From the NCBI GenBank assembly GCA_963733255.1, contig CAVTCH010000019.1, positions 452,328 to 516,327 of the forward strand: a stretch of DNA of 64,000 nucleotides. Direction: 5' to 3'. The notes under the pieces were generated by a model. The model was not told where the DNA came from, searched no databases, and saw only the letters and a program-made list of their open reading frames with translations. Shown here piece after piece: positions 14,621 to 64,000 of the stretch (positions are counted from its first letter, which is position 1; each line of letters begins with the position of its first letter). This DNA is from an uncultured Actinomycetes bacterium. GTDB taxonomy: Bacteria > Actinomycetota > Thermoleophilia > UBA2241. A program made the translations under genes and the position numbers.

Positions 14621-14681
14621 GGTGTCCCCCTCTGCCTCAGGTGGATGGGTCGCCGCCCGCACTCGCGGTCGTTGAACGCCG

Positions 14682-15212
14682 CTAGATGAACAGATTCACG
14701 TTGGCTTCGTCGGCCTCGCCGAGGTAGGTCGCCACTCCGGCGAACTCGAGCCCGTCGATGAGCTCCTCCTCCTTGAACCCGAGGATGTCCATCGAGAGCG
14801 TGCAGGCGATGAACTTCACGCCCTGCTCCCTGGCGGTGTCGACCAGCTCCTCGAGCGACATGGCGTTGGCCTTCTTCATGACCTGCTTCATGAGCGGCGC
14901 GCCGGCGCCGGCGAAGTTCATCTTGGACAGCCCGAGGTGACGCGTGCCCTTGGGCATCATCTTGCCGAACATGGCCTGCAGGGCGCTCTTTTTGTCGGTC
15001 GTCTGCACCTTCTCGGGCTTACGCAGGATGTTCAGACCCCAGAACGTGAAGAACATGGTGACGTCGTCGCCCATCGCCGCGGCGCCGTTGGCGATGATGA
15101 AGGCGGCCATGACGCGGTCGAAGTCGCCGCTGAACAGGATGATCGTCTTCTTGGTGGTCGTCGCGGGAGCGCTCTCCTCGCTCTCCACGATGGCTTGAGT
15201 CTGTTCGTCCAT
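14682..15212 (-). CDS. DsrE/DsrF-like family protein (COG2044-type, 176 aa)
   Basis: KKTIILFSGDFDRVMAAFIIANGAAAMGDDVTMFFTFWGL...KFIACTLSMDILG... typical of DsrE-family sulfur-relay proteins with a conserved Cys. AAGGGGGA RBS. Confidence 0.6.
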   Translation of the reverse strand: MDEQTQAIVESEESAPATTTKKTIILFSGDFDRVMAAFIIANGAAAMGDDVTMFFTFWGLNILRKPEKVQTTDKKSALQAMFGKMMPKGTRHLGLSKMNFAGAGAPLMKQVMKKANAMSLEELVDTAREQGVKFIACTLSMDILGFKEEELIDGLEFAGVATYLGEADEANVNLFI

Positions 15213-15223
15213 GTCGTCCCCCT

Positions 15224-16201: not shown

Positions 16202-16207
16202 CTCCTC

Positions 16208-16513
16208 CTAGAGTCCGAAGACGGTACGGTCGATGTGGTGGCGCAGCGTGCGCACGTTTTCGGCGATGTGCACGCCCGACGGACAGTTCTCCTCGCACAT
16301 CTTGCACAGCAGGCACGAGAAGACCGTCTCGGTCTCGGCGCGCACGCGGTCCTCCATGCCCAGGAGCACGTAGCGAAACAGCTTGCGGGGCTGCACCTCG
16401 ACCCCCATCGGGCAGATCGCCGAGCACACGCCGCAGTTCATGCAGGCGTCGGCGTTGAATCCGTCCGCGCGGTCGAGCTCGGCCGCCAGTGCGGGGTTCA
16501 CGAGAACCGTCAT
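16208..16513 (-). CDS. hdrC: Heterodisulfide reductase subunit C-like (HdrC; 2x[4Fe-4S])
   Basis: CMNCGVCSAICPMG and CLLCKMCEENCPSG ferredoxin motifs. ATG overlaps the upstream stop (ATGA). Confidence 0.8.
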   Translation of the reverse strand: MTVLVNPALAAELDRADGFNADACMNCGVCSAICPMGVEVQPRKLFRYVLLGMEDRVRAETETVFSCLLCKMCEENCPSGVHIAENVRTLRHHIDRTVFGL

Positions 16514-16809
16514 GAGCCCTCCCTGGCGATGATCTGATACCGGAAGTAGCCCTCGTCGGTGACTTCCTTGATCTCGGCCAGCCAGCCGTACTTGCGCAGG
16601 CCCATGACCCAGAACATCACCTCGTGGGACGGACGTTCGACGGCCGCCGCGATCTCAGGCACCGTGAGGGGCCCCTCAGCGAGCGCCGCCAGGATGCGGC
16701 GCCGCATCACCTGTTCGTCGCGCACGATCTCGCGCACGTCGCGGTTGCCGGGGGACGCCTCTCTGACGGTCGTGCCGCCGGCGCCGTGGTTGTCGTGTGC
16801 CGGCGTCAT
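16510..16809 (-). CDS. Small conserved hypothetical protein between hdrA and hdrC (winged-helix-like, ~99 aa)
   Basis: C-terminal 99 aa of the long listed ORF (MTPAHDNHG...RRRILAALAEGPLTVPEIAAAVERPSHEVMFWVMGLRKYGWLAEIKEV...). Translationally coupled on both sides (ATGA overlaps). Confidence 0.5.
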   Translation of the reverse strand: MTPAHDNHGAGGTTVREASPGNRDVREIVRDEQVMRRRILAALAEGPLTVPEIAAAVERPSHEVMFWVMGLRKYGWLAEIKEVTDEGYFRYQIIAREGS

Positions 16810-18545
16810 GAGCAGCTCACCTCCAGGAGGCCGTCGATCATGGCCTTGATCTGGGCGTCGGTGTAGCCCTGCAGGTCGATCGCTTCGGTGGGACACACCG
16901 GCACGCAGCCGCCGCAGCCCTTGCAGGCCGTGCGGATGACACCGGCGACCGCCTTGCCGTCGGCCTCGACCTGCTCGAGGGCATCGTAGGGGCAGGCTTC
17001 CACGCACTTGCCGCACCAGGTGCAGGCGTCCGTATCGACCAGCGCCACCATCGGGTCGAGCTCGGCGAAGCCGCGCTTCAGGATGGCGCCGCTTTGCGTG
17101 ACGGCCGCGAGGCCGCTGGCCACCGCTTCGGCCGAGTTCTTGGGCGACTGGCAGGCGCCGCAGATGTAGACGCCGTCGACGACCGTCTCGACGGGGCGCA
17201 GCTTGGGATGGATCTCGTTGAAGAAGCCGTCGTTGCCGACGGGCAGCTTGAGCACGCTGACCAGCTCGCCGTTCTCGCGCGACACCATGCCGGTGACGAG
17301 CACCACGAGGTCGGCCGGGATGGACACCTCTTCGCCGCCGGTGAGCAGGTCGCGAGTGGTGACTTCGAGCCCGCCGGTGACGAGATTCCTCACCGCCGGC
17401 GGCTCGTCGTCGGGCACGCGCAGGTAGACCGAGCCCTTCTCGCGCGACTCGCTCCACAGCAGCTCGTACTTGCCGTAGGTGCGCATGTCACGGTAGAGGT
17501 GGTACTGGCGCAGCGCCGGGTCGCCCTTGGCGGCCGCTTCGAGCGCCGCATGCACGGCGGCCGTGCAACAGTAGCGCGAACAGTACGGGTGCCCGCCCTC
17601 GACGTCTTCGCCCTGACGGCTGCCGACGCAGTAGACGTAGGCGATCGTCTTGACCGGCCGGCCGTTGTACTGCAGCGGCCCGTCCGCCTGGTCGAGCATC
17701 TGCTTGAACTCGGGAAGGGTGACGACTCCCTCCACGCCGTAGCCGAACTCGCCGGCCGCGGGCTCGTAGGTGTCGAAGCCGGTGGCCACGACGACGGAGC
17801 CGACCTCTACTTGGATGGTCTCGAGCTTCTCGCCCTGGATGGCTATCGTCATCTGGTAGTTGCCGAAGCTGCCGCTCTTCCCCATCACCTCGGCATCGGT
17901 GAACACGGTGACGGCCGGATGGCTGCGCACCTTCGCTTCGAGGCCGGCCACCAGGTCGGCGCCATCGCGGCCGTGCGGGTACATCTCACCGAAGCCGGCG
18001 ACCCAGCCGCCGAGCCGTGGCTCCTTCTCTACGAGAAAGACGGAGAGCCCGATCTCGGCCAGCCCGAGGGCCGCCCGCAGACCGGCGATGCCGCCGCCCA
18101 CGACGAGGCTCCTGGGAGTCGTCTCTACGACGATCGGTTCGAGGGGCTCGGTCAGACGCGTGCGGTTGATGCCGGCGCGCACCAGGCGCACCGCCTTCTC
18201 GGTCGCACCTTCGTGGTCGTCGGTGTGCGTCCACGAGCACTGCTCGCGCACGTTCACCTGCGTGTACTGGAAGGGGTTCATACCGGCGCGCCTGGCCACG
18301 TCACGGAAGGTGACCGTGTGCAACTTGGGCGAGCACGAGGCCACGACGAGCGCGTCGAGGCCCTTCTCGTGGGCGTCCTGCACGATCTCCTGCTGGGTCG
18401 CGTCGGAGCAGGTGAACATTGCCGTGCGGGCGACCACGACGTCGGCGTCGTGCTCGACCGCGGCGACCACCTGCTCGACGTCGACGTAGTCGCTGATGTT
18501 GCCGCCGCACTGGCAGACGTACACGCCGATCTTGCGGCCGCTCAT
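16806..18545 (-). CDS. hdrA: Heterodisulfide reductase subunit A (HdrA, full-length methanogen-type)
   Basis: N-terminal HdrA-specific Cys domain KIGVYVCQCGGNISDYVD...FTCSD...ASCSP, FAD site VVGGGIAGLRAALGLAEIG, C-terminal CVGSRQ...CSRYCC and 2x[4Fe-4S] (CTWCGKCVEACP, CKGCGGCVPVCP). Confidence 0.85.
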   Translation of the reverse strand: MSGRKIGVYVCQCGGNISDYVDVEQVVAAVEHDADVVVARTAMFTCSDATQQEIVQDAHEKGLDALVVASCSPKLHTVTFRDVARRAGMNPFQYTQVNVREQCSWTHTDDHEGATEKAVRLVRAGINRTRLTEPLEPIVVETTPRSLVVGGGIAGLRAALGLAEIGLSVFLVEKEPRLGGWVAGFGEMYPHGRDGADLVAGLEAKVRSHPAVTVFTDAEVMGKSGSFGNYQMTIAIQGEKLETIQVEVGSVVVATGFDTYEPAAGEFGYGVEGVVTLPEFKQMLDQADGPLQYNGRPVKTIAYVYCVGSRQGEDVEGGHPYCSRYCCTAAVHAALEAAAKGDPALRQYHLYRDMRTYGKYELLWSESREKGSVYLRVPDDEPPAVRNLVTGGLEVTTRDLLTGGEEVSIPADLVVLVTGMVSRENGELVSVLKLPVGNDGFFNEIHPKLRPVETVVDGVYICGACQSPKNSAEAVASGLAAVTQSGAILKRGFAELDPMVALVDTDACTWCGKCVEACPYDALEQVEADGKAVAGVIRTACKGCGGCVPVCPTEAIDLQGYTDAQIKAMIDGLLEVSCS

Positions 18546-21259
18546 GCCTGCACCTTCACTTTCGCTCCGTCGGCTACCTTTGCCCTCTCGAGGTGGGCGG
18601 CGGCCTGGGCCACCGCGGCGCCCGCGTGGAGGATGGAATCGGGGATATCCTTGGCGCCGGCCGCCGCCCCGGCGACAAAGACGCCCGGCAGGTTGGTCCG
18701 GCCGGGATCCAGGTCTTCGTCGGCCTCGCCGACGTAGTAGTAGTCGTCGAGTGCGAGAGCGCCGTCTTCGAACAGGGCCGGCGCCTCGCCGTTGGGCTGC
18801 ACGCCGACGGCCAGCACGACGAGGTCGTGTTCGGCCTCGGCCGGTTCGCCGCCGTTCTCGATGTCCTCGTACCGCAGCACGAGGTTGCCCTCACCGGTCT
18901 CGGTGATGCCCGAGACGCGGCCTTTGACGAAGTTGGCGCCCATGTCCTTGGCCTGCTGGTAGAACTCGTCGTAGCCCTTCCCCACCGAACGCACGTCGAT
19001 GTAGTAGACAGTCACGTCGGCAAGCGGCAGGGCGCCCATGATGAGCTGGTTCTGCTTGACCGAGTACATGCAGCAGATCTTGGAGCACAGCGGGTTGCCG
19101 ACGGTGTCGTCGCGCGAGCCGGTGCACATGACGTAGGCGATGTTGTCGGGCACCTTGCCGTCGCTGGGCCGCAGCACGGCGTTGTAGGGCCGGGTCGGCG
19201 CCAGAAGGCGGTCCATCTGCATGCCGGTGATGACGTTCTTGTAACGCCCGTAGCCGTACTGTGGCTTGGCGTCGGCGGCAAAGAGCCCGAAGCCGGTGGC
19301 CAGCACGACCGCGCCGACCTCGACGTCGATCTCGCGGCCGCGATCGTCGAGCTTGATGGCGTCGGCCGGACAGGCGTCGACGCAGGCGTGACACTCCGAG
19401 CAGACGCCGCAGTCGAGACAGCGAGCCGCGCCCAGGAACGCCTCGTCTTCGCTCAACGGGCCCTCGGTCTCGCTGAAGTCGGTGGGCGCCGCGCTCATGG
19501 CGGCGCTCGACTCGAACGGCTCGCGACGATCGTACGAGTCCTGCCTGGCAAGCACCTCGGCCTTGTCGACCACCGGCAGCGCCTCGTCGAAGGCGTCGGC
19601 GTCGAGCTCCGCGCCCTGGAGATAGCGGTCGATCATGAAGGCGGCGCGGCGACCCTGACCGACGGCGGTCGTGATCATGGTCGGGCCGGTGACGACGTCG
19701 CCGGCGGCGAACACCTGCGGCACGCTGGTCTGCAGCGTCGCCTCGTCGGCCTTGAGCGTGTGATTGCCGTTGGTCTCGAGGCCGAACGCGTCCGTGTCGG
19801 CGCCCATGCCCGCGGCCACGATGACCACGTCGCACTCCAGACTCTGGCGCTGTGTCTCGTCGTACTCGGGGTGGAAGCGCCCGGCGGGATCGAACACACA
19901 GGTGCAGACCTTGAGCTCGGCGCCCTGCACGCGGCCGTCGCCGGTGAAGTGATCGATGCCCCAGCCGTCGTGCAGCGTGATGCCTTCGGCCTGAGCCTCT
20001 TCGACTTCGAAGTCGTGGGCCGGCATCTCCTCGCAGCACTCGAGGCTGACCTGGTCGACCGAAGCGGCCGCGAGACGGCGCGCGGTGCGCGCCGCGTCGA
20101 TGGCGACGTTACCGCCGCCGACCACCAGGACGCGCTTGCCGGAGAGCTCGACGGGCTCGCCGAGCTTGACGGCTCGCAGGAACGCCAGCGCACTCTGCAC
20201 GCCGGCGAGCTCTTCGCCGGGCACCCGCAGGCCCACCGACTTGTGCGTGCCGGTAGCCAGCAGCACAGCGTCGAAGCCGTCGTTTGCGAGCGCCGTCGCG
20301 TTCTCGACACGCACGCCGGTGGCGATCTCGACTCCGATCGCCGTGACGTTGGCGACGTCGTGGTCGACGACCTCGTTGGGCAGCCGGTACGCGGGGATGG
20401 CGAGGCTCAGCATGCCGCCCGGCTTGGGCGCCGCCTCGAAGATCTTGACGCCGTAGCCGCGGCGCGCGAGCTGCCAGGCGGCGGTGAGGCCGGCCGGACC
20501 CGACCCGACGACGGCGACCTTCTTGCCGTTGGGCTCGGGCTGTGCCGGGGCCTGCGGCTCGGCCTGGCCGTAGCGCCGGTCCGCGATGAAACGCTTGAGA
20601 CGACGGATCGGCAGTGGACCTTCGATCTCGCCGCGCGTGCACTCGTCCTCGCAGGGCGCATAGCAGGCGCGCCCGAGGCTGCCTACCAGCGGTGTGGTCT
20701 CCAGCACCAGGTCGAACGCCTGGTCGTATTCGCCGCTGCGCACCCGTGCCACGTAACCGTGCGCCTTGATGCCGGCCGGGCAGTTGTAGGTGCAGGGCGA
20801 GACGCCGGCGCGGTCGATGACCGCCTTCTTGGGCACCGCCTGCGGAAACGCGATATATGCCGCCCGTCGCGACACCATGTCGGCGTTGAACTCGTCGGGC
20901 ACGGCCACGTTGCAGGCCATCTCGCACAGGCGGCAGCCGGTACAGGCGGCCTCGTCTATGAACTTGGGCTTCTGGCGGACGGTGGCGTGGTAGCCGCCGT
21001 TGCCGTCGCCGCGGATGCCGTCGACCTCGGCGTAGGTGAGCACATCGATGTTGGGATGGTGGATGGTGGCGGCCATCTTGGGGGTGGAGATGCAGCTCGC
21101 GCAGTCGAGTGTCGGAAACACCTTGCTGAGCAGGATCATCTTGCCGCCGACGCTGGCCTGCTTTTCGACGACGAGCACCTTGTAGCCCATGTCGCCCAGC
21201 TTGAGCGCCGACTCCATCCCCCCGATGCCGCTGCCGACCACCAGAGCGTCGTACTTCAT
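18542..21259 (-). CDS. HdrA-like / glutamate-synthase-small-subunit (GltD-like NAD(P)H) fusion protein (HdrL-like, 905 aa)
   Basis: N-terminal FAD site plus FPTLDCASCI (HdrA signature) and ferredoxin insert. Middle SPCTYNCPAGI, GKKVAVVGSGPAGLTAAWQLARRGYGVKIFE, AAGD (GltD-like). C-terminal HdrA half (CTGSRDD, CSKICC). Confidence 0.8.
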   Translation of the reverse strand: MKYDALVVGSGIGGMESALKLGDMGYKVLVVEKQASVGGKMILLSKVFPTLDCASCISTPKMAATIHHPNIDVLTYAEVDGIRGDGNGGYHATVRQKPKFIDEAACTGCRLCEMACNVAVPDEFNADMVSRRAAYIAFPQAVPKKAVIDRAGVSPCTYNCPAGIKAHGYVARVRSGEYDQAFDLVLETTPLVGSLGRACYAPCEDECTRGEIEGPLPIRRLKRFIADRRYGQAEPQAPAQPEPNGKKVAVVGSGPAGLTAAWQLARRGYGVKIFEAAPKPGGMLSLAIPAYRLPNEVVDHDVANVTAIGVEIATGVRVENATALANDGFDAVLLATGTHKSVGLRVPGEELAGVQSALAFLRAVKLGEPVELSGKRVLVVGGGNVAIDAARTARRLAAASVDQVSLECCEEMPAHDFEVEEAQAEGITLHDGWGIDHFTGDGRVQGAELKVCTCVFDPAGRFHPEYDETQRQSLECDVVIVAAGMGADTDAFGLETNGNHTLKADEATLQTSVPQVFAAGDVVTGPTMITTAVGQGRRAAFMIDRYLQGAELDADAFDEALPVVDKAEVLARQDSYDRREPFESSAAMSAAPTDFSETEGPLSEDEAFLGAARCLDCGVCSECHACVDACPADAIKLDDRGREIDVEVGAVVLATGFGLFAADAKPQYGYGRYKNVITGMQMDRLLAPTRPYNAVLRPSDGKVPDNIAYVMCTGSRDDTVGNPLCSKICCMYSVKQNQLIMGALPLADVTVYYIDVRSVGKGYDEFYQQAKDMGANFVKGRVSGITETGEGNLVLRYEDIENGGEPAEAEHDLVVLAVGVQPNGEAPALFEDGALALDDYYYVGEADEDLDPGRTNLPGVFVAGAAAGAKDIPDSILHAGAAVAQAAAHLERAKVADGAKVKVQA

Positions 21260-21696
21260 GCTGCCGATGCCTTTCGGGAGGGGCCGAGCTTGGTCAGGGA
21301 CGCGGAGAACTCGTGCATGTAGTTGGTAAAGGGCTCGGCACAGACCGAGCAGATGGCCGCCATGCGCAGCCGCTGGGGCTCATAGCCGTGGTCCACGAGC
21401 AACGCCTGAGCGTCGGCCATGATCTGTGAGGTGCGCTCGCTGCAGTCGGACAGGTAGGCGCATTCGTCGCCGTCAGCGGCCACGAAGACGCCGTCGAAGC
21501 CCTGCTGGATCGCGTAGAGCGCCCAGCTCGGCTTGATGCCGCTCGTGCAGGGCACGCTGATCACCATGACGTTGGGCGAGTAGTGCATGTGCGAGCTGCC
21601 GGCCAGATCGATGCCCGGGTCGGAGATGTTGTTGGTCGAAAGCACAAGGATGCGCGGCTCGAAGCCCTGCTCGTCGCGTGACTGCAGATCCGCCAT
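21256..21696 (-). CDS. mvhD: MvhD/FlpD-like hydrogenase delta-subunit family protein
   Basis: VISVPCTSG...GFDGVFVAADGDECAYLSDCSE aligns to the MvhD core. The N-terminal CCxxC motif is replaced by LSTNNIS. Confidence 0.7.
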   Translation of the reverse strand: MADLQSRDEQGFEPRILVLSTNNISDPGIDLAGSSHMHYSPNVMVISVPCTSGIKPSWALYAIQQGFDGVFVAADGDECAYLSDCSERTSQIMADAQALLVDHGYEPQRLRMAAICSVCAEPFTNYMHEFSASLTKLGPSRKASAA

Positions 21697-55001: not shown

Positions 55002-56447
55002 GTGAGCACCGACATCCGCTACATCGTGCTTTCCGACGCCCATCTCGGCGCCGCCAACAGCATCCTCACGCCGACGAAGGCCGAGGAGGCCAGGGGCGAG
55101 CGAGACCAGGCCGGTACCGTCATGAGCGGCCTGATCGACTGCCTCGCGACCCTGGTCGCCGCAAACCAGGGCGACCGCTTGCCGACCCTGGTCGCCTCGG
55201 GTGACCTGCTCGACCTCGCCCTCTCGCCGCCGGAGCAAGCCGTGCCGGTCCTGGGCCGGCTGCTGGTCGGCCTCTTGGCGCCGCGGCGGCCCGTCGTCGA
55301 CCACGAGGTCATCCTTCTGCCCGGCAACCACGACCACATCCTCTGGGAGTACACCCGAGAGCACTGGCTCGAGAAGCACCTGTCCGAGGTCATCCAGGGA
55401 GATCTCGCGGCGCCGGCGATGCGCCATCGCATCGGCCCGATGTGGCTCGACGAGCAGCCGCGCTACGAGGCCCCGCTGGTGTCGGAGGTCATGCGCGGAA
55501 CGGCACACCTGGACGACGCGCGCCTGCGCGTGCTCTACCCCGACCTGGCGCTGGCATCCTCCGATGGCAGTCGGGTCGTGCTGATCACCCACGGCCACTA
55601 CATCGAGTCGGTCAGCAAGGTCATGTCGGGGTTCCTGCGGACCCTCGCACCGAACGTGCCCGAGCCACTCGACGTCGAGACCATGGAGCAGGAGAACTGG
55701 CCCTGGCTCGACTTCTTCTTCTCGTCGATGACGCGCTCGGGCAGAGCCGGAGCGCTCGTGGAGAGCATCTACGACGCGCTGCAGGACGAGGCGGCCCTGT
55801 CTCGACTGCTCGATGAGGTGGCGCGCAGCATGACGGTCAAGAGCGGTCGCCTGGTGGGCACCGCGGAACGCCTCGGCATTCGCTGGGGCGTCGGGGCGCT
55901 GGTCGACATGATCGCCTCTGCGCGCGAGCGGGGCGTCACGACGGAGCTGCTGACCAAAGACACCCGGGACGGCCTTGGCAAGTACCTCGTCTCGCTGCGC
56001 TCGCGCCTCCGGGAAGACGGCCGCGCTCTGCCCAACGATGCCGCGCTGATCATCGGTCACACCCACAAGCCCTTTTGCCAATGGTGGCCCGACGCCTCCT
56101 GGCCGGGCGGCGGGCTGCGGGTTCACAACACCGGCGGCTGGGTGGTCGATCACGCCACGGCCCAACCCCTGATGGGAGGCGCGGTGGCGCTGGTCAGTGA
56201 CGATCTCGACGTGGCGCTCGTGCGACTCCACCAGCAGATCGACGACCCGCAGGACTGGCACGTCACGATCGATGCGATCGACGGCGACGGCTCGGAGGCG
56301 GCCTTCGCCGCCCATCTGCGCGCGCTGATCGAGGGCCACCCCGGCGTCTTTGCCTCGCTGGTGGACAGAGCGGCGCAGGCCGTGCGTGACCGGCGAGCCG
56401 CCAACCAGCTCCTGCTCGACAGTCGCCCGGAGATGCTGGGAGGCTAG
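55002..56447 (+). CDS. Calcineurin-like metallophosphoesterase with long C-terminal extension
   Basis: IVLSDAHLG and LLPGNHDH metal-binding motifs. GTG start with a weak SD. Confidence 0.7.
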   Translation: MSTDIRYIVLSDAHLGAANSILTPTKAEEARGERDQAGTVMSGLIDCLATLVAANQGDRLPTLVASGDLLDLALSPPEQAVPVLGRLLVGLLAPRRPVVDHEVILLPGNHDHILWEYTREHWLEKHLSEVIQGDLAAPAMRHRIGPMWLDEQPRYEAPLVSEVMRGTAHLDDARLRVLYPDLALASSDGSRVVLITHGHYIESVSKVMSGFLRTLAPNVPEPLDVETMEQENWPWLDFFFSSMTRSGRAGALVESIYDALQDEAALSRLLDEVARSMTVKSGRLVGTAERLGIRWGVGALVDMIASARERGVTTELLTKDTRDGLGKYLVSLRSRLREDGRALPNDAALIIGHTHKPFCQWWPDASWPGGGLRVHNTGGWVVDHATAQPLMGGAVALVSDDLDVALVRLHQQIDDPQDWHVTIDAIDGDGSEAAFAAHLRALIEGHPGVFASLVDRAAQAVRDRRAANQLLLDSRPEMLGG

Positions 56448-56525
56448 GGCCGTGAGGCCGTCGAGGTCGGCCTGATCGTCCGGCAGCTCCAACCGCCGCG
56501 CCTCGAGCCGTGAGCCCCCGCCCCC

Positions 56526-58535
56526 CTACGCCCAGCCCTCGAGCTCATCCCTATGTTCCCAGGCCCTCAGCCGCCGCATGCGGCGCCGCACCACGATCGA
56601 CGGACAGATCAGCAGGGCGGCGAGCAGCAGCACGGCCGCGGCGACCCGCAGACGGGCCGCGGTATGAGAGACGGGCGGGGGAGGGCTGCCGCCCCCGCCC
56701 CCCAGCGCGCCGCCGCTCACCTGGCCGATGCTCACGGGGACGCCGCTGATCGCACCCGCCGTGGCTCCCCCAGACGTGGCGACCTGCTGCTCGCTGGGCA
56801 CGACCAGGTCGGCTCCGCTCGTATTCGAGGTCGAGCCCGACGTGCCGGCCGTGCCGCTGCCGCCCAGGTCGATGCTCGTGCCCTGACCGGCGCCGACGCC
56901 CGTGCCGCTGCCCGCGCCGCCCACACCGGTGCCGGTGCCTGTGCCGGTTCCTGAGGCGGTGCCGTTGCCACCGGTCGCGCCACCGTTGCCTGAGCCAGTC
57001 GATTTGGTCTGGCCGGTCGTGTAGGTGAGCACGACATCGTTCAGCGAAGGCGCGAGCCACAGGTCGGTCTTGCGGGGCGCGTTGAGCACGAAGTCGAACC
57101 TGATCGTCGAGGTGACCGCACCGCGCACCGAGTAGCTGCCGGGGCGACGGAACTCGCGCCGATGTCCGTCCGCCAGGTAGTAGTGGACCGTCACCGACGT
57201 GCCGTTCAGCGTGCTGGCCCTCACGCGCAGCGTCACCAGATGGGCCTGCGTGGCTCCGCTTGCCAGGCGGAAGGTCTTCGTGTCGGCCTGGGCGCCGCCG
57301 CTGTTACCGATCAGGGCGACGTACTGGGCGCTCGTGTCGCACACCAGCAGGGCGCCGTCGATCCTGTCAGTGGCGACACCCGCCGGGGGCGCTCCGCTGG
57401 CGCGCTCGGCCAGCCGGGGAGCGGCGAGCGAGCCGGCGCTGCCGAGCCCGCTCGAGCTCCAGACGACGTCGTGGTCAGCGTTCACCTCGATCACCCGTCC
57501 GTTGCCCGTGTCGGCGATCAGCACGTCGCCGTTCGACTCAATCCCGGCGCCCAGTGGGCCGTTCAGATACCCGCCGCCGGCGCCGGCCACGCCCGAGACG
57601 CCATACTGCCACGACGGCGCCGTGCCACCGCTGACCACCTTGATGACCCGGTCGGCGCGCAAGTCGGTGATCAGGGTGGAGCCATCGCTTTCGCGCTCGA
57701 CGTCGGTCGGGCCCTCGAGCTGGTCGGCGCCGGTGCCGGGCGTGCCGCCGTAGCGCCACACCACATCGCTGGGATCTGCCCAGTTCACCTCGAGCACCTT
57801 GGGCGCGCTCGCCGCCTCGTCGGCGATCAGTACGGCCGGCCCGGAGTCGCCGGTGCCGTTCGCGACGTACTCTGCGCAAACGGGATCGGACAGCGCGTCG
57901 GCGCCGGTCCCCGTGTAGCTCCACAAGAGAGCGTCGGCGTTGTCGCGGTCGACCGCAAACACGCGCCCCGCGCCCGAGTCGGCGATGATGACGATACGGT
58001 GGCCGTCGCTGCCCCTCGTGAACTGCCACGTCCACGACGGCGTCTGAAGGACCGGGTCACCTGCGCCGCCAGCGTACGACCACACCGGCGTGACGCCGGC
58101 CGACAGTATCTTGACCTGACCGCCGCAGCAGACCAGCTCCGTGCCATCGGACAGCCATTGTGCCGACCCCAGGCCGCCGCCCGCCGCCCCTGTGGCCCGC
58201 GACCACAGGATCCTGCGGCCGAGCGTGAGCGTCTTGTCGGTGCCGCCGCTGACCTGAAGCCCACTGCTGCGGCGCTGCGAGAGACCGGTCAGGTAGAAGG
58301 CGTGACCCGGTGTGCCGAGCGCAAGGGTCGCGGTGTTTGCGCTCGCGCCGGCGCTCGCCGACGCCAGGGCGGCGCCCAGGGCGAGCACAGCGACGGCGGC
58401 CGCCACTGCGAAGAGCGACACGACCAGGCCGGGAGGCGGCGCCGAGGAAGCGGTCGAGGTCGTCGGGCGGCCCGGGGATGCCGAAGAGGCGGTCCCTCTT
58501 CTCGGCCGAGAAGTCGGATGCGTGGCCGGTCTCAT
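56526..58535 (-). CDS. Membrane-anchored NHL/YVTN-type beta-propeller protein with Gly/Thr/Ser-rich linker and C-terminal TM segment
   Basis: N-terminal signal-anchor (LVVSLFAVAAAVAVLALGAALASA). Repeated blades (IIADSGAGRVFAVD, LIADEAASAPKVLEVN, LITDLRADRVIKV, LIADTGNGRVIEVN). Linker GTGTGTGTGVGGAGSGTGVGAG. C-terminal TM plus RRRMRR. Confidence 0.6.
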   Translation of the reverse strand: MRPATHPTSRPRRGTASSASPGRPTTSTASSAPPPGLVVSLFAVAAAVAVLALGAALASASAGASANTATLALGTPGHAFYLTGLSQRRSSGLQVSGGTDKTLTLGRRILWSRATGAAGGGLGSAQWLSDGTELVCCGGQVKILSAGVTPVWSYAGGAGDPVLQTPSWTWQFTRGSDGHRIVIIADSGAGRVFAVDRDNADALLWSYTGTGADALSDPVCAEYVANGTGDSGPAVLIADEAASAPKVLEVNWADPSDVVWRYGGTPGTGADQLEGPTDVERESDGSTLITDLRADRVIKVVSGGTAPSWQYGVSGVAGAGGGYLNGPLGAGIESNGDVLIADTGNGRVIEVNADHDVVWSSSGLGSAGSLAAPRLAERASGAPPAGVATDRIDGALLVCDTSAQYVALIGNSGGAQADTKTFRLASGATQAHLVTLRVRASTLNGTSVTVHYYLADGHRREFRRPGSYSVRGAVTSTIRFDFVLNAPRKTDLWLAPSLNDVVLTYTTGQTKSTGSGNGGATGGNGTASGTGTGTGTGVGGAGSGTGVGAGQGTSIDLGGSGTAGTSGSTSNTSGADLVVPSEQQVATSGGATAGAISGVPVSIGQVSGGALGGGGGSPPPPVSHTAARLRVAAAVLLLAALLICPSIVVRRRMRRLRAWEHRDELEGWA

Positions 58536-58542
58536 TCCTCGC

Positions 58543-59754
58543 CTACCCGTCGCGGCCGTCGGGGATGAGGTGGACCGCCGCGGCCGGGATGACGAGCTCG
58601 ACGGCGGCGCCCGGCGCCGCCTCGAAGCCGTCGCCGTAGGCGCGCGGCACGAAGACGGTCAATCCCCCGGCGTCGACCGCGACCAGCCGGCCGTTGGCCG
58701 TCTCGCGCACGTCCACGACGTGGGCCGCGACGACGTTGTCGGCGAGCGGCAAGTGACCGTCGGCCACGCCCCGCCGCAGCACGATGTCGTCGGCGCGCAC
58801 GACCGCGGTCACCGGACCGCTGGTGGTCAGCGCGCCGCGAGCCGCTGCGTCCGCGCGCAGCACCAGGCCATCGGCCAGCGTCACCTCGCAACCGTCACTC
58901 TTGCCGAGCGAGCGAGCCGTCGCTGCCAGCACGTTGCGCGCCCCGGTGAGCCGCGCCACGGCAGCGCTGGCCGGGTGTGCGACGACCTCGTCGATCGGGC
59001 CGTCCTGGATAATTCGGCCGGCGATCAGCACGACGCAGCGGCGTGCCACCGCGAGCGCCTCGTCGAGACTGTGGGTGACGTGGATCATGGTCATGGCGAA
59101 CCGTTCATGCACCCTGACCAGCTCGGCCTGAAGCTCTTCGCGCGCCTCCGGATCGAGGGCGCTGAGCGGTTCGTCGAGCAGCAGCGCGCGGGGACGGGCG
59201 GCGAGCGCGCGGGCCAGCGCGACGCGCTGGCACTCACCGCCCGACAGCGTGCCGGGCCGGCGTCCGAGCAAGGCCGCGACGCCGAGCGCCTCGGCCACCT
59301 CGCGGACGCGGGCATTCCAGTCGGTGGCACTCGCGTGGGTCCGAGCGCCGCCGTCTTCCCCACTGGCCCGCGCCCGGTTCACGTAGCTCGCCTGCGGGGC
59401 GCCATCGCCGTTCACCCGCGAGCGCACGCCGGTCCAGCGCGCGAGCCCGCCGCCCGTGACCGTGGGTCCGAAGGCGATGTTGCGGGCCACCGTCAGGTGG
59501 GGGAACAGCAGCGGCCGCTGGCCGACCAGGCCGATGCCGCGGCGTTCGGGCGGCGCGCCGGTCACGTCGCGCTCGCCGGCCGCGATGCGACCCGCCGCGG
59601 CAGGCCGCAGGCCGGCGAGCGCCTCGAGCAGCACGCTCTTGCCGGCGCCGCTCGGACCCACGACGGCGAGGTACTCGCCGTCGGCCACCGCCAGATCGAC
59701 GGGACCGAGCGCGAAGCCGCCGGCGCGCACCTGCAGGGCGTCGGCGCGGATCAT
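58543..59754 (-). CDS. ABC transporter ATP-binding protein, ModC/WtpC-like with C-terminal TOBE/MOP-like domain
   Basis: Walker A GPSGAGKS, LSGGECQRVALARAL, DEPLSALD, and a C-terminal beta-rich domain. Start overlaps the permease stop (ATGA). Confidence 0.8.
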   Translation of the reverse strand: MIRADALQVRAGGFALGPVDLAVADGEYLAVVGPSGAGKSVLLEALAGLRPAAAGRIAAGERDVTGAPPERRGIGLVGQRPLLFPHLTVARNIAFGPTVTGGGLARWTGVRSRVNGDGAPQASYVNRARASGEDGGARTHASATDWNARVREVAEALGVAALLGRRPGTLSGGECQRVALARALAARPRALLLDEPLSALDPEAREELQAELVRVHERFAMTMIHVTHSLDEALAVARRCVVLIAGRIIQDGPIDEVVAHPASAAVARLTGARNVLAATARSLGKSDGCEVTLADGLVLRADAAARGALTTSGPVTAVVRADDIVLRRGVADGHLPLADNVVAAHVVDVRETANGRLVAVDAGGLTVFVPRAYGDGFEAAPGAAVELVIPAAAVHLIPDGRDG

Positions 59755-60605
59755 GCCCGCTCCTCGCGCCGGCCCGACATGGCGCGCACCACGATGAAGA
59801 CCACCAGTGCGACCAGCACGATCAGCAAGGCGGCCGGCTTGGCGGCGTTCAGGCCGAGACCTTCGAAACGTTCGTAGACGAGCACCGACATGGTCTTCGG
59901 GTTGTAGGCGAGGATGACGATGGCGCCGAACTCGCTCATGCCGCGCGCCCACATGAGCAACGCGCCGGCCAGCACGCCGCGGCGCGCCAGCGGCAGGGCG
60001 ATGCGCCAGAAGGCGACCCCGGGCGTGGCGCCCAGCGTGCGGGCCACCCGCTCGTAGCCGGGGTCGACCAGGGCGAAGGCCTCGCGAGCGGTGTCGACGA
60101 GAAACGGCAGGCTCACGAAGAGCATGGCCACCACGATGCCGGCCAGCGTGTCGGTGAAGGCGATGCCGAGGTGGGCGAAGCCGCGCCCGAACACGCCCGT
60201 ACGGCCGAAGACCAGCAGCAGCGCGAGACCGGCAGCGGTATGCGGAAAGACGATGGGCAGATCGATCAGGCCCTCGATCAGGCGCTTGCCGGCGAAGTTG
60301 CGGCGCGCCAGAAGATAGGCGAGGGGCACGCCGAACAGCGCCGCCAGCAGCGTAGCCAGCAGGGCCGCCTCGATCGAGGTGAACAGGGCCTGACGCACGT
60401 CGGCGGCGCGCATCGTGCTGATCAGCTCGTGCAGGCCGGTACCGGTGACCAGGGCGACGAGCGGGGCTGCCACGAAGATGAGCAGGATGAAGCCGAGCCC
60501 CCACGACACGACGGCGAAGGCGGCGGGGCGGCGGCGAGGCCGTACGGCCTCGCCGCCGCCCCGCCCCTTGCGCCCCTCGAGCGTGCCGGAGCCGGCCACG
60601 TTCAC
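59751..60605 (-). CDS. ABC transporter permease, ModB/CysTW-like
   Basis: Six TMS with an EAA-like loop (ARTLGATPGVAFWRIALPLAR). Confidence 0.8.
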   Translation of the reverse strand: MNVAGSGTLEGRKGRGGGEAVRPRRRPAAFAVVSWGLGFILLIFVAAPLVALVTGTGLHELISTMRAADVRQALFTSIEAALLATLLAALFGVPLAYLLARRNFAGKRLIEGLIDLPIVFPHTAAGLALLLVFGRTGVFGRGFAHLGIAFTDTLAGIVVAMLFVSLPFLVDTAREAFALVDPGYERVARTLGATPGVAFWRIALPLARRGVLAGALLMWARGMSEFGAIVILAYNPKTMSVLVYERFEGLGLNAAKPAALLIVLVALVVFIVVRAMSGRREERA

Positions 60606-60633
60606 GGCGTCCGCCCCAGATTCGTCCCCGCGC

Positions 60634-61764
60634 TCACGGCATCTGCCCCGCCTTCAGCGGCGCGCACAGCGGGCGTAGTGCCGCCGGCAACGCGTCGTAG
60701 TGGTCGACGAGCGCCGGCGTGATCGAGGGCTGATCGTCGGCCGCCAGGATGGCGCGCCCCTTGGGTCCCAGCAGAAAGGCGATGAAGCGCGCCGCGCCGA
60801 CCGGATCGCCGGCGGTGCTGGGGATGGTCACCGCGTAGGCGATCGGCGCACCCACGAAGACCGGCTTGACGCCGGCGAAGCGCTGAAAGGCGATCGAGAC
60901 GGCGACGCGGGCGTAGTCGGCGGCGTGGCTCTGCGAACCCAGATCGATCGCGGCCGGCAGTCGCACGAAGGGCAGGTGGTGCTGGCGGGCGACGCTCTCG
61001 TACTCGAAGGCGCAGTCGAGGTCGCCGGCCTCGAGCAGGGCGACCAGCTCGATGCTGGCGTCGCGTAGCACAAGACCGGTCCCCGACACGGCGTCGAGCA
61101 GCTCGGGCACGTCGACCACGTCGCGGCCGTCGCCGCTCGTCAGGGTGACGGGCGGCGAAAAGCGGCCGACCGTGACATCGGCGAAGAGGTGGTCGTCGTG
61201 GTAGTAGCGCTGCGCCAGGTCGAGCACCATGAGGGCCCGGTAGCCGGTGGCGTCGAAGCGCGGGTCGGCCAGGCCGAACTGCACGCCCGGGGTGGTGAGC
61301 GCGCGGATCCAGTCGCCCGAGGCAAAGAGCTTCGCGTACCTGCTGCTCGGCGCGTAGGCCAGCACCATGCGGTTGGTGGCAAAGACGGCGTACCAGTCCG
61401 CGGTCGGGTGCTTGGCGTCCTCCATCATGAGCGACACGAGGCTGGCGTCGGCGGAGGTGAGCACGTCGAAGCTGCGACCCAGGTCGGCGACCTGCCTGAT
61501 GACCTGGATGCTGCCATGGCTCTCGGTCTGCACACGCACGCCGGGGTGCGCCTGCTGGTAGGCCTGGGCCAGGCGGCCGAACGGGATGATGAGGCTGTCG
61601 GCGTCGACCAGCGACACGGTCGTGTCGGACGACGAGTGTGAGCAGGCGCCGGTCACGACCACACCCAACAGCGCGGCGGCGGCCAGCACCAGCGCCGCGG
61701 CCGCGCGCCAGCGCAGCCCCGCCGTCGCTCCCGCCCGCCTGCGACCGGTCATCGCCACCCTCAC
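60634..61764 (-). CDS. ABC substrate-binding lipoprotein, molybdate/tungstate (ModA/WtpA/TupA) type
   Basis: Lipoprotein signal (LLGVVVTGACS), periplasmic-binding type-II fold. Start overlaps the upstream gene stop. Confidence 0.7.
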   Translation of the reverse strand: MRVAMTGRRRAGATAGLRWRAAAALVLAAAALLGVVVTGACSHSSSDTTVSLVDADSLIIPFGRLAQAYQQAHPGVRVQTESHGSIQVIRQVADLGRSFDVLTSADASLVSLMMEDAKHPTADWYAVFATNRMVLAYAPSSRYAKLFASGDWIRALTTPGVQFGLADPRFDATGYRALMVLDLAQRYYHDDHLFADVTVGRFSPPVTLTSGDGRDVVDVPELLDAVSGTGLVLRDASIELVALLEAGDLDCAFEYESVARQHHLPFVRLPAAIDLGSQSHAADYARVAVSIAFQRFAGVKPVFVGAPIAYAVTIPSTAGDPVGAARFIAFLLGPKGRAILAADDQPSITPALVDHYDALPAALRPLCAPLKAGQMP

Positions 61765-62807
61765 TTGGGACGCAGCCGCACCTCGGTGATGCGTCCGATC
61801 GACTGGTCGTCGGTCAGGCCGGGGCCCACGAGGCGCAGCGGGAAGTAGTCGGGCGTGAGCGACTCACCGTCCATCTGGCCGGCCAGGATCCAATTCTTGT
61901 GCTTCAGCAGGTCGCGTGAGCTCAGAAAGGTCGTGACGCCGTTGGCCGCGATCAGCTCGACCCGGTAGCCCTTCGCGGCGAGCTTCACGTTGAACGCCCC
62001 GGCGCCGTGGGTGCGGCGATCGTCGACCGAGCCGACCACGAGCCACAGCGGAACGCCGGTCCAGCGCTGCCCCGACGAGTCCGAGTACTCACTGCCGTGG
62101 CAGCCCGGCGAGGCGCACGACACATACGACGCCTGCGTCAGCGTCGAGCTCGTATGGCCCTGCACCGCTACCTGCCACTGGCCCAGCGACTTCTTGACCT
62201 CGAGCCTGTCGACCCAGCGCACCGACCAGTGGCCGTCGACCACGACGTCGGCCCTAGGCTCGGCGAAGACCAGGTGCAGGGGGCCGTCCTCGGACGGGTC
62301 GAGCGGCTTGCCCTGGTGCCGGTAGGCAAGCACGAGCGTGAGCTTGGCCGCCGGCGGGCGTTCGGCGCCGGTCACCGGGTCGTAGGTGATGAAGTCGCCG
62401 CCGGCCGCCTGTCTGGCCGAGAAGGTCATGCCGTAGCCGTCCTTGGCGAGCACGGTGACGCCGTAGGAGGGATCGATGCCGCCGACCTGCGACGAAAGCT
62501 CGGAGAGCGGCACGCCGGTGTACTGGGTGGGGGCCGTGATCACCCCGACGCTGTTCTTGATGCCGGCGTAGCCGGTGTACGACGGCAGCGCCTCGAGTTG
62601 CGCCAAGGTGAACGATTTGCTGCCCTTTGCTCCGACGACGGTGACCACGACCGGTCCAGCCGGACTCTGCGACGCAGCGGTCGAGCCCGCCGAGCCGCAG
62701 CCGCCGAGGCCGCCGATGGTCAGCACCGCGGCCAGCACGAGCGCGGGGACGAGGAGCACGAGGACGATCAGACCGGCCGGCCTCGTGACGATGCTGCGAT
62801 GGCTCAT
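61761..62807 (-). CDS. Lipoprotein with tandem sulfite-oxidase-fold-like (YedY/MsrP-like molybdopterin-binding) half-domains, paralog 1
   Basis: Lipobox LGGCGS. FTLAQLEALP...YTGVPLSEL (first half, no Cys). CHGSEYSDSSGQRWTGVPLWLVVG...FPLRLVGPGLTDDQSIGRITEVRL (second half; compare YedY C-x11-W-GFPL and [25 protein letters not shown]). AAAGGA RBS. Confidence 0.45.
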   Translation of the reverse strand: MSHRSIVTRPAGLIVLVLLVPALVLAAVLTIGGLGGCGSAGSTAASQSPAGPVVVTVVGAKGSKSFTLAQLEALPSYTGYAGIKNSVGVITAPTQYTGVPLSELSSQVGGIDPSYGVTVLAKDGYGMTFSARQAAGGDFITYDPVTGAERPPAAKLTLVLAYRHQGKPLDPSEDGPLHLVFAEPRADVVVDGHWSVRWVDRLEVKKSLGQWQVAVQGHTSSTLTQASYVSCASPGCHGSEYSDSSGQRWTGVPLWLVVGSVDDRRTHGAGAFNVKLAAKGYRVELIAANGVTTFLSSRDLLKHKNWILAGQMDGESLTPDYFPLRLVGPGLTDDQSIGRITEVRLRPK

Positions 62808-62846
62808 GGCCGTCCTTTCGGCGCTCTCGTGCAAAACGGCAGGTGG

Positions 62847-62877
62847 GCGGGCGGGGCGCCTGCGGCGCCCCGCCCGC
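62847..62877. terminator. GC-rich palindrome (GGGCGGGGCGCC-tgc-GGCGCCCCGCCC) between the two paralogous SO-fold-like genes
   Basis: Seen directly. Confidence 0.45.
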
Positions 62878-62891
62878 GACACTCCTTCTCG

Positions 62892-63998
62892 TTACTTCAG
62901 CGGCAGCAGCACGACGCGCGTGACGCGGCCGATCTCCTGCGAAGCCTTGAGGCGCGGGCCGACCAGACGCAGCGGGAACGTAGAGCTGCCGAGCGTCAGG
63001 CCGTCGCGAGTCCAGGCGAGCACGACGTTGCGCCGGCCGTCGCCCTGGTAGACGATCAGGCGCGAGCTCACGATTCGCTTCAGCCCGGTCGAGGAGATGA
63101 CCTCGACGCGGTAGCCCTTGGTCGCGCGGACCGCATTGAAGGTCATGGTATTGCCGCCGTCGACCTCACCGACCAGCATGTAGAGCGGCACGCCGCGCCA
63201 CTTGTGGGCGAGCGTCGTGTAGGCGCCGTTGTGCGAGAATTCGTGGCAGTTCACGCAACTGGAGTAGTCGTTTCGCCTGATCGTGCGCGTCTGTCGCACG
63301 CCGTTGATCTTGAGCCCGGTGAGCTTGAGGCTCCAGTCCTTGGCCACCGAATCGACCACGTTCAGCTTGACGAGGTACTTGACGCTGTCGCTGCCGGTCA
63401 TGACCACGTTCTCGCTCGTGGCATTGCCGTCGGCGACCGCCAGGCGCAGAGGGCCGTCGCCGGCGGGCGGCGGACTCGGGTCGAACACGTGGCCGGCGGG
63501 ATCGCTGTACAGGAGGATCGGCGCGAACGGCCCAGTGTAGCTCGTCGACGACACCGGCTTCTTGGTGGTCGCGTCGTACAGCTGGGTCATCTGATCGACG
63601 TTGGTCAGCTGCGCGTCGGAGTACGTCTGCACGTAGTCGTCGGACCCGATGAACTCCACCGACTGGTTCGCGCCGAGCGGCGCGCCCAGCACATCCTCGA
63701 GGACGTCGGACAGCGCGATCCCCGACACGGCGTCGGGACCGTAGACGATGTTGCCGCTGTTCATGAACCCGGTCCAGCCGTTGAACACGGCGGCGCCCGG
63801 ACTCGACGCGGGCAGCGCCTGCAGGTCGGCCAGCGTGTACTCCTTCACGAAGGCGCCGTTGTGGCCCACCTGCAAGACGACGCTGGGCGACGGCGAGGGC
63901 CACGGCGTGGTGCCGAGGGCGGTCCCGCCGCGCGTCGCCCCCCGCGCCACGCTTCCGGCCAGCACGACACTGGCGGCCAGGATCGCGGCGACGACCAC
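62892..63998 (-). CDS. Paralog 2 of the SO-fold-like tandem-domain secreted protein (5' end probably beyond window)
   Basis: EYTLADLQALP...GWTGF...GIALSDVL (first half). CVNCHEFSHNGAYTTLAHKWRGVPLYMLVG...FPLRLVGPRLKASQEIGRVTRVVL (second half). Signal-peptide-like N-terminus runs to the window edge. Confidence 0.45.
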   Translation of the reverse strand: MVVAAILAASVVLAGSVARGATRGGTALGTTPWPSPSPSVVLQVGHNGAFVKEYTLADLQALPASSPGAAVFNGWTGFMNSGNIVYGPDAVSGIALSDVLEDVLGAPLGANQSVEFIGSDDYVQTYSDAQLTNVDQMTQLYDATTKKPVSSTSYTGPFAPILLYSDPAGHVFDPSPPPAGDGPLRLAVADGNATSENVVMTGSDSVKYLVKLNVVDSVAKDWSLKLTGLKINGVRQTRTIRRNDYSSCVNCHEFSHNGAYTTLAHKWRGVPLYMLVGEVDGGNTMTFNAVRATKGYRVEVISSTGLKRIVSSRLIVYQGDGRRNVVLAWTRDGLTLGSSTFPLRLVGPRLKASQEIGRVTRVVLLPLK

Positions 63999-64000
63999 CA

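Follow-up and report, generated by a model that had tools for sequence, protein, structure and literature searches.

Paralogous proteins of truncated sulfite-oxidase fold encoded with a WtpABC-type tungstate/molybdate importer in an uncultured actinobacterium: candidate accessory proteins of metal acquisition

The stretch of DNA analyzed here (the window, 64,000 nucleotides of contig CAVTCH010000019.1) stems from an uncultured soil actinobacterium. Close to its end it encodes two paralogous exported proteins, here called paralog 1 and paralog 2, and an ATP-binding cassette (ABC) importer of the WtpABC type. Each paralog is built of two truncated modules of the sulfite oxidase (SUOX) fold. The genes are the distal part of a riboswitch-controlled operon for acquisition of tungsten (or molybdenum), which comprises geneA, geneB, paralog 2, paralog 1, WtpA, WtpB, WtpC, and an NHL-repeat surface protein. 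The paralogs are probably, though by no means certainly, cofactor-repressed extracytoplasmic accessory proteins of W/Mo acquisition, and they may be redox-active; a relay containing c-type haem is included in this reading. It builds on the fold, its truncation and internal duplication, the Sec and lipobox signals, the class of the WtpA protein, the adjacency to WtpA and WtpB in two phyla, the riboswitch control, and a site composed of Cys-His and a further His or Met. A preliminary description of the same DNA had taken the paralogs to be periplasmic oxidoreductases that depend on the molybdenum cofactor (Moco) or on tungstopterin.

Along their full length the two paralogs show 33% identity (BLASTP E 6e-44). 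The N-terminal and the C-terminal half of each are themselves related (profile-profile probability 96.2%, E 2.3e-9), and the preliminary description was thus right in seeing two paralogs made of two related halves each. The motifs it quoted, C-H...W(T/R)GVPL and FPLRLVGP(G/R)L, are present as well, and the N-half does lack a Cys. Pfam family PF00174 (Oxidored_molyb) matches paralog 1 with 47.5 bits (cutoff 24, E 2e-12), and the separate halves with 22.3 bits (N-half) and 30.1 bits (C-half). Paralog 2 gave no Pfam match, neither as a whole nor for either half. An AlphaFold2 model of paralog 1 based on 63 sequences (pLDDT 90.4, pTM 0.74) was compared to known structures using Foldseek. It matches chicken sulfite oxidase (E 4e-7), YedY (E 3.6e-4), and PruR (7kos, 7kom, 7kp2, and 7rkb; E from 5.5e-7, TM 0.65-0.74 over the whole PruR chain). 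PruR from Agrobacterium tumefaciens (Atu3496; PDB 7kos, 7kou, 7kom, 7kp2, and 7rkb) is a pterin-binding protein of the periplasm and has a truncated SUOX fold. Since a confident model matches sulfite oxidase, PruR, and YedY, the sulfite-oxidase-like fold proposed earlier is real, and PF00174 supplies the profile similarity to the Moco domains of the sulfite oxidase family. In sequence comparisons the best PDB match of the N-half profile is a PruR homologue (7kom, E 6.5e-5), while plant sulfite oxidase gives E 0.008.

The modules are short. Each is about 140 residues long and starts at the strand that comes after the N-terminal, cofactor-binding segment of sulfite oxidase, with nothing upstream of this first strand. 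Both halves of paralog 1 cover only positions 65-160 of the 169 positions of PF00174, and a complete Moco domain including the N-terminal deep-cleft segment is absent from both. The degeneration of the halves is complementary. The N-half has D123-G-Y125, which aligns with N102/Y104 of PruR (7rkb/7kom), but no Cys, while the C-half has the Cys but displays N-G-V where the N-half has D-G-Y. The half that bears the Tyr is therefore the one without a Cys, and the half that bears the Cys has no pterin-stacking Tyr.

The export signals are of the Sec type. Paralog 1 has the lipobox LGGC with the lipidated residue at Cys37 (codon at 62697-62699) and no twin arginine. The full N-terminus of paralog 2, taken from the same contig beyond the window (locus L002), reads MKRRRDLTILVVVAAIL... 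and contains no lipobox Cys, and the protein is thus secreted or N-terminally anchored; of the two lipoproteins described at first, only paralog 1 is one. When signals were classified by motif counting only among 151 family members of two-module size, 127 had a lipobox, 88 (58%) had no RR in the n-region, and 18 were loosely Tat-like. RR pairs are found in some proteins (KRRRD in paralog 2, RRRR in certain orthologues) but are not kept among orthologues, and export by the twin-arginine translocation (Tat) system was for this reason rejected as a property of the family. The question of TAT versus Sec signals raised by the preliminary description is accordingly answered in favor of the Sec/lipoprotein type. 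Exported Moco enzymes are folded and loaded with their cofactor in the cytoplasm, and are then exported by Tat.

The substrate-binding protein (SBP) of the importer scores above the cutoff of the WtpA model TIGR03730 (256.2 bits, cutoff 242.75), and among PDB entries it matches 3k6u (ModA/WtpA; E 1.2e-63) and 2onk (E 8e-53). It is a member of the archaeal ModA/WtpA class and, judged from its sequence, a binder of tungstate/molybdate, in line with the Mo/W class first suggested and not with the sulfate/thiosulfate binders that had been named as the alternative. Transport of sulfate/thiosulfate was considered and rejected: on the permease the CysT and CysW models score well below WtpB, and no sulfate-binding-protein model is found among the NCBIfam matches of the SBP at E ≤ 1. 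D-A-T-G-Y-R and I-E-L in the SBP align with D-P-A-G-Y-R and V-E-L of 3k6u, and we take the conserved Asp (DxxGYR) and Glu (xEL) of these motifs to be the probable oxyanion ligands, in analogy to the Archaeoglobus fulgidus structure. The permease has WtpB (NF040839) as its best match (E 1e-81), with 274 bits under the equivalog cutoff of 340, and the best match of the ATPase is WtpC (NF040840; E 5e-74), with 249.5 bits against a cutoff of 440 and in two stretches. In the WtpA class, two acidic residues provide for octahedral coordination of tungstate/molybdate (PMC11350598).

The system thus resembles the archaeal importers of this class (Pyrococcus furiosus WtpA; A. fulgidus ModABC, PDB 2onk; Methanosarcina acetivorans, 3k6u) in an SBP above cutoff, in two acidic residues that are apparently conserved, and in the best matches of permease and ATPase. 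It differs from them in that the host is a bacterium (Actinomycetota), that the SBP is a lipoprotein, and that up to four genes for SUOX modules precede the transporter genes. We know of no SUOX-module accessory proteins described for WtpABC, TupABC, or ModABC. The ATPase also carries an insertion of about 45 residues within the ABC domain, at approximately residues 95-145 (window ~59322-59472, minus strand; …VTGGGLARWTGVRSRVNGDGAPQASYVNRARASGEDGGARTHASATDW…), and the NCBIfam models match on either side of it.

The pairing of the module proteins with this importer is conserved. A scan of one genome per species with the patterns Y[VS][NS]CASPGC and [DE]GHW..KW yielded 237 relatives, and the locus counts given here refer to the best 80 of these 237; as the patterns favor members of the Cx4C type, this set of 80 is biased. 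They belong to Actinomycetota (Thermoleophilia and metagenome-assembled genomes (MAGs) labelled 'Actinomycetes') and to Chloroflexota (Anaerolineae), the latter including the cultured Longilinea arvoryzae KOME-1, whose lipoprotein comprises three modules and a Sec lipoprotein signal of the KK type. Just downstream of the lipoprotein gene, 75 of the 80 loci encode WtpA and 72 encode WtpB, the exceptions being truncated contigs. The same WtpA-type neighbor is found for the variant homologues P0042, P0166 (single-Cys), and P0170 (multi-module; locus L094). In Thermoleophilia the block continues with genes for a TOBE protein, MoaA, MoaC, and MoaB; the moa genes that the preliminary description wished to see nearby are hence found adjoining the transporter in these related loci. 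With the WtpA neighborhood and a common riboswitch, its proposal that the module proteins are tied to a metal-uptake system holds.

The wider family is large, with 1583 clusters at E ≤ 0.001 among representatives at 50% identity. It includes surface proteins of up to 3139 residues with up to nine modules, which are combined with PKD, CBM96, and NosD-like domains, and related modules also occur in archaeal surface proteins. Most of the modules in the wider family are Cys-less. A search of the literature for a WtpA-linked SUOX-module family, also under Oxidored_molyb/PF00174 and the GEGP diheme proteins, found no study of it.

Three metagenome contigs, with lengths of up to 1 Mb, carry the locus; on these, geneB and geneA lie upstream of paralog 2 and are preceded by a riboswitch of the Moco/tungsten cofactor (Tuco) type. 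GeneA encodes one N-type module and an immunoglobulin-like domain, while geneB encodes three to four modules, of which the last carries the motif G-E-G-P-Y-R-F. The operon is larger than first described, with the NHL-repeat gene at its downstream end and two more SUOX-module genes and the riboswitch at its upstream end. RF01055 is found upstream of the first module gene in loci L002, L004, L005, L006, and L013 with 51-62 bits (cutoff 36). A covariance model made from six copies detects the element in some 28 Actinomycetota loci, where it has the orientation of the paralog 1 homologue and precedes this by about 3 kb, and in the Chloroflexota locus L055 RF01055 stands directly upstream of the lipoprotein gene. 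Locus L009 has two tandem copies of the riboswitch (5563-5686 and 6999-7122), and in L006 a second copy is found in front of moaA. The P3 stem of the riboswitch is absent. According to Regulski et al. (2008, PMC2408646), the occurrence of Moco-type RNAs without P3 correlates with metabolism of the tungsten cofactor. Among the exceptions left unexplained in that study were P3-less RNAs located before genes for a 'putative sulphite oxidase' in Syntrophomonas wolfei (PMC2408646).

These data bear on the question of whether the paralogs are enzymes. According to the preliminary description and to the current database annotation (the 373 homologues of paralog 1 are annotated 'molybdopterin-dependent oxidoreductase'), they would be extracytoplasmic Moco- or tungstopterin-dependent oxidoreductases of a diverged YedY/sulfite oxidase subfamily, co-expressed with the importer and using Cys236 as the Mo/W ligand. 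With YedY/MsrP and sulfite oxidase/SorA they indeed share the core fold, the motifs W-x-G-V-P-L, D-G-Y, G-P-L-R-L, and V-K-W, and apparently a Cys in the C-module at the position of the Mo ligand. The near-invariant C236 aligns with the Cys of CAGNRR in plant sulfite oxidase, but in a weak stretch (-1.3 bits), and the MoaA/MoaC/MoaB genes next to the transporter in Thermoleophilia would suit an enzyme. The modules differ from these enzymes in lacking the first ~64 profile positions, the deep Moco cleft, and the dimerization domain, in having Sec/lipoprotein and not Tat signals (58% without RR), and in placing the Cys and the pterin-contact residues in separate modules, the pterin-stacking Tyr being lost from the one that bears the Cys. 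No MsrQ, MsrQ-like protein, SorB, haem b5 partner, or other known SUOX redox partner is encoded in the operon, and the sister genes of the same operon are built of modules without Cys. In crystal structures, the truncated fold of PruR has a shortened pocket that takes a small pterin, without the deep cleft needed for Moco (PMC11194511; PMC13259868), and PruR is unable to hold Moco (PMC11194511). Like PruR, the modules of ~140 residues are without the N-terminal cleft segment. The paralogs are thus unlikely to be Moco enzymes, and of the explanations considered here this is the one we find hardest to believe. Three points nevertheless weigh against the accessory role favored here. Moco riboswitches also precede genes of enzymes that use the cofactor (PMC2408646), and riboswitch control alone does therefore not exclude an enzyme. 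The riboswitch was seen in just one of the nine Chloroflexota loci scanned with Rfam. Finally, C236 apparently stands where SUOX enzymes have their Mo ligand, so that a Mo/W-thiolate or some other metal site may be present instead.

PruR offers a second way of reading the modules. Like these, it is a module of about 140 residues with a truncated SUOX fold, exported by Sec and without a catalytic domain, and PruR proteins are the closest solved relatives by sequence and size. Both are labelled molybdopterin-dependent oxidoreductase in databases, which is a mis-annotation (PMC13259868). Outside the cell the modules might then act as sensors or binders of pterins that are free or excreted (or else of a precursor of the cofactor), and would modulate the transporter in a way comparable to PruR-DcpA. 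The N-half, and only this half, keeps the Tyr and the Asn/Asp of the PruR pocket, and Asp replaces Asn also in some groups of PruR (PMC13259868). No counterpart of W160 of PruR could be assigned. The pocket Tyr is absent from the C-half, and so is the hallmark Pro-Trp that PruR has at the former Cys position from both halves; by counting of positions the N-half has Ile83-Lys84 there, and the C-half Cys-His, to which a His/Met is added. PruR is further found in Proteobacteria, while the hosts here are Actinomycetota and Chloroflexota (and archaea, in the case of the surface proteins), and the architecture differs, with two or more tandem modules and several paralogous genes per operon. The partner is not a diguanylate cyclase/phosphodiesterase of the DcpA (GGDEF/EAL) type but the ABC importer WtpABC under a Moco/Tuco riboswitch. 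Since WtpA keeps its oxyanion ligands, the transported species should be an oxyanion and not a pterin. Pterin binding as the function of the modules is on these grounds improbable, if slightly less so than a Moco enzyme.

If the paralogs are accessory proteins, the most conspicuous feature of their C-type modules is the Cys-His site. The "C-H" of the preliminary description is present but is part of a longer motif, CASPGCH (C231-x4-C236-H237) in paralog 1 and CVNCH (C-x2-C-H) in paralog 2. C231, C236, and H237 are invariant in an alignment of close homologues, and in a wider one C236 and H237 reach a conservation of at least 90%. Across the wider family the motif takes the forms C-x4-C-H, C-x2-C-H, G-x4-C-H, and G-x2-C-H, and in archaeal repeats C-x4-G-H, C-x2-H, or a form without Cys. 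The His is the most constant residue of the motif, and bacterial lipoproteins that lose one Cys keep the one adjacent to the His. About 30 residues further on follows a His or Met (V-D-D/G-x-x-x-H/M), which is found in 74 of 95 modules with C-H compared to four of 204 modules without the His. In the lineage of paralog 1 this residue is always His. In that of paralog 2 it toggles between Met and His while the spacing toggles between x2 and x4 (CLSCH/CVNCH with Met, Cx4CH with Met or His).

This pattern of Cys-His and a downstream His/Met looks like the signature of a c-type haem site. Both paralogs have a CxxCH/CXnCH haem-attachment motif in a protein with a Sec signal, and export by Sec fits an attachment of haem outside the cell. 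Within the accessory role, the chance that the C-type module carries haem c appears to be close to even, or a little below. The NCBIfam family NF041762, 'GEGP motif-containing diheme protein', may be relevant here: the N-type module resembles positions ~130-260 of the model, with E 3e-5 when paralog 1 is compared and down to 1.5e-13 with the Longilinea homologue, and the family pairs such a module with c-type haems. The likeness concerns the core region only, and as the scores are far below the cutoff of 300 the paralogs are not members of NF041762.

Two gene neighborhoods likewise hint at haem. In 19 of the 80 loci, from MAGs of the Thermoleophilia type, genes for CcmE (of the CxxxY type; C-P-S-K-Y) and CcmF are found ~5 kb downstream of the Wtp-Moa block (e.g., L004 15810-17020; L006 16331-17005). 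These belong to System I of cytochrome c maturation, which is not usual in Actinomycetota. The archaeal homologue P0134 (L089 6001-12940), a Cys-free protein of 1005 residues with four modules and His...His sites, is encoded directly upstream of ahbD-, ahbA-, ahbB-, and ahbC-like genes. The ahb genes serve siroheme-dependent haem synthesis. Nearby YcaO-TfuA genes suggest that the host of L089 is a methanogen-related archaeon.

Against haem in these modules count several observations. In about half of the two-module relatives a Gly takes the place of the first Cys of the motif, with even more variation in archaeal repeats, and a variable Cys in the attachment motif is unusual for c-type cytochromes. 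To our knowledge no SUOX fold binds haem. Cytochrome c maturation genes were seen neither in the window nor within 10 kb of the locus. The ccmEF neighborhood may be coincidental, reflecting synteny within one class, and the ahb neighborhood, a single case, may be so too; a second ahb-linked case was sought near homologues P0255 and P0170 and not found, one contig being too short and the P0170 locus being a WtpABC-like operon.

The same residues could alternatively form a non-haem metal site or a direct Mo/W site. Cys236, His237, and His267 (Met in paralog 2) would then bind, e.g., Cu(I), or Mo/W via the thiolate, and the proteins would act as extracytoplasmic metallochaperones or thiometallate processors that feed WtpA without haem. 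The apparent position of Cys236 at the Mo-ligand site agrees with this, as does the observation that the first Cys is dispensable while Cys-His and the distal His/Met are most conserved; swaps of His to Met are typical of Cu(I) sites in oxidizing compartments. The tight linkage to WtpABC and the riboswitch also fits. Neighboring Cys and His residues, on the other hand, seldom chelate one ion jointly, Met binds W(VI)/Mo(VI) poorly, the spacing variants CxxCH and Cx4CH are classical haem c motifs, and handing over an oxyanion via a thiolate would be without precedent. A non-haem metal or Mo/W-thiolate chaperone is consequently a rather unlikely alternative to the accessory role including haem, but we rank it before the PruR-like pterin binder, which in turn comes before a true Moco enzyme.

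The favored role of the paralogs as accessory proteins of W/Mo acquisition could work as follows. When the tungsten cofactor is scarce, the riboswitch would let the operon be expressed. The module proteins would leave the cell unfolded via Sec, after which paralog 1 would become lipid-anchored, and together the exported module proteins would constitute a relay or antenna at the cell surface. This would capture or condition W/Mo species and hand tungstate to the lipoprotein WtpA, from which WtpBC would import it. Binding is likely to be the task of the N-type module, which keeps residues of the ancestral pterin/oxyanion pocket (Asp123, Tyr125, His193-Trp194, Lys197-Trp198, and the Lys84/Ser86 loop). 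To the C-type module a c-type haem would be attached covalently outside the cell, with His/His ligation in paralog 1 and His/Met ligation in paralog 2. Such a haem would give the pair a redox role, for instance in freeing W/Mo from reduced, sulfidic, or mineral-bound forms. It is conceivable, though less likely than not and held with less assurance than the accessory role as such, that the C-type modules represent a new class of extracytoplasmic c-type cytochromes on a truncated SUOX fold, in which haem has replaced Moco at the same site, and that they form with their Cys-less sister modules a riboswitch-controlled surface relay for redox conditioning and delivery of W/Mo to WtpABC in monoderms. 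In its logic, though only there, the arrangement resembles the Isd haem relay, in which NEAT-domain surface proteins pass haem to the lipoprotein SBP IsdE and the permease IsdF. In both cases paralogous exported proteins made of one repeated binding module are attached to a monoderm envelope at differing depths, are encoded together with an SBP and an ABC importer, and respond to the nutrient. The Isd modules have an unrelated fold and another cargo, and hand-off from module to module is for the present proteins purely conjectural.

The features of the locus are listed in Table 1.

Table 1. Features of the operon in the window and beyond its end.
Feature	Position	Strand	Description	Evidence
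NHL-repeat membrane protein	56526-58535	minus	669 residues	Pfam NHL E 9e-6
WtpC-like ABC ATPase	58543-59754	minus	C-terminal TOBE-like region	NF040840 best match, Pfam ABC_tran
WtpB-like ABC permease	59751-60605	minus	start GTG 60605	NF040839 best match, Pfam BPD_transp_1
SBP, WtpA-type tungstate/molybdate-binding lipoprotein (predicted)	60634-61752	minus	372 residues from ATG 61752	TIGR03730, PDB 3k6u/2onk
Paralog 1	61761-62807	minus	348-residue lipoprotein; N-type truncated SUOX module ~50-205, C-type ~206-348	Pfam PF00174 E 2e-12, AlphaFold2, Foldseek
CASPGCH (C231-x4-C236-H237), paralog 1	62097-62117	minus	paired His267 codon 62007-62009	
Hairpin	62847-62877	minus	G-C-rich, directly 3' of the paralog 2 stop codon	RNA fold
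Paralog 2	62892 to beyond 64000	minus	378 residues in full, 10 N-terminal codons past the window end; signal/anchor peptide without lipobox, then N-type and C-type truncated SUOX modules	open reading frame/translation, 33% identity to paralog 1
CVNCH (C-x2-C-H), paralog 2	63243-63257	minus	paired Met codon 63144-63146, where paralog 1 has His	
Moco/Tuco riboswitch RF01055	L002 5689-5811, window-equivalent ~66997-67119	minus (window)	~3 kb past the window end	Rfam 58.6 bits, cutoff 36
geneA and geneB, further SUOX-module genes	L002 5992-6909 and 7073-8695, past the window end		exported proteins of the same operon, modules without Cys-His	

The G+C content of the region is high (68-75%). The minus strand carries all genes, and these are transcribed in the order paralog 2, hairpin, paralog 1, SBP, permease, ATPase, NHL-repeat protein; as far as it went, the gene order given earlier agrees with the open reading frames and the sequence. 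Paralog 1, SBP, permease, and ATPase were said to be linked by ATGA overlaps, but this is true only of permease and ATPase (59751-59754). Between paralog 1 and the SBP an 8-nucleotide spacer precedes ATG 61752, with GAGGG in front; the alternative start GTG 61764 would give a GTGA overlap with the paralog 1 stop codon, and ATG 61752 is the more likely start. The SBP stop codon and the GTG of the permease are separated by a gap of 28 nucleotides.

The hairpin reported between the two paralog genes is real, with 14 perfect pairs and a loop of three nucleotides; RNA folding of a stretch of 101 nucleotides gave a minimum free energy of -49.7 kcal/mol (z -2.9 compared to shuffled sequences). The U tract is weak (GUUUU 10 nucleotides downstream). 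A scan of 56400-64000 for terminator and promoter consensus sequences called none, the hairpin included, and this is therefore not a canonical intrinsic terminator. Strong hairpins of other sequence are found at the same place after the paralog 2 stop codon in the related loci L008, L010, L011, and L033. Because they are equally strong and placed alike but differ in sequence, position and structure are conserved and the sequence is not. This suggests an intra-operon attenuator or an mRNA-stability element that divides the upstream secreted proteins from the lipoprotein-transporter part.

The NHL-repeat gene begins 7 nucleotides past the stop codon of the ATPase and is probably co-transcribed with it. 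Its product has a hydrophobic segment at the N-terminus and a membrane anchor at the C-terminus, and contains a linker rich in Gly, Ser, and Thr. It is found at the same position only in the closest relatives, i.e., the four closest loci (L008-L011) and L005.

Two other parts of the window were noted from their translations. An apparent heterodisulfide-reductase-like cluster at 14210-21379 (minus strand) would encode two large HdrA-like flavo/iron-sulfur proteins, an HdrB-like protein with CCG domains, and a DsrE-like protein, and would suggest an anaerobic lifestyle. At 1346-3466 (plus strand) a protein of about 700 residues is encoded that consists nearly entirely of a ~38-residue repeat (…ARCTMNRAVAL..LGRF.EAL.G..EA..V…), TPR-like in appearance.

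Taken as a family, the module proteins are degenerate-SUOX (PruR-like) proteins with a new architecture, a new partner, and possibly a new cofactor. Uptake of W/Mo has been described as a matter of three components, a binding protein, a permease, and an ATPase; here a fourth class of proteins, conserved, exported, and regulated by the cofactor, is bound to the WtpABC operon. The family also provides a candidate explanation for the exception from 2008, the Tuco-type riboswitches before 'sulphite oxidase' genes in S. wolfei. Should the Cys-His/His(Met) site bind haem, the SUOX fold would clearly exemplify how a site for one cofactor is re-used for another. If the proteins serve in capture or processing, the name 'molybdopterin-dependent oxidoreductase' would be wrong for thousands of database entries, and the question would be opened of how monoderm bacteria in soil and sediment gain W/Mo that is present in traces or in sulfidic or mineral-bound form.

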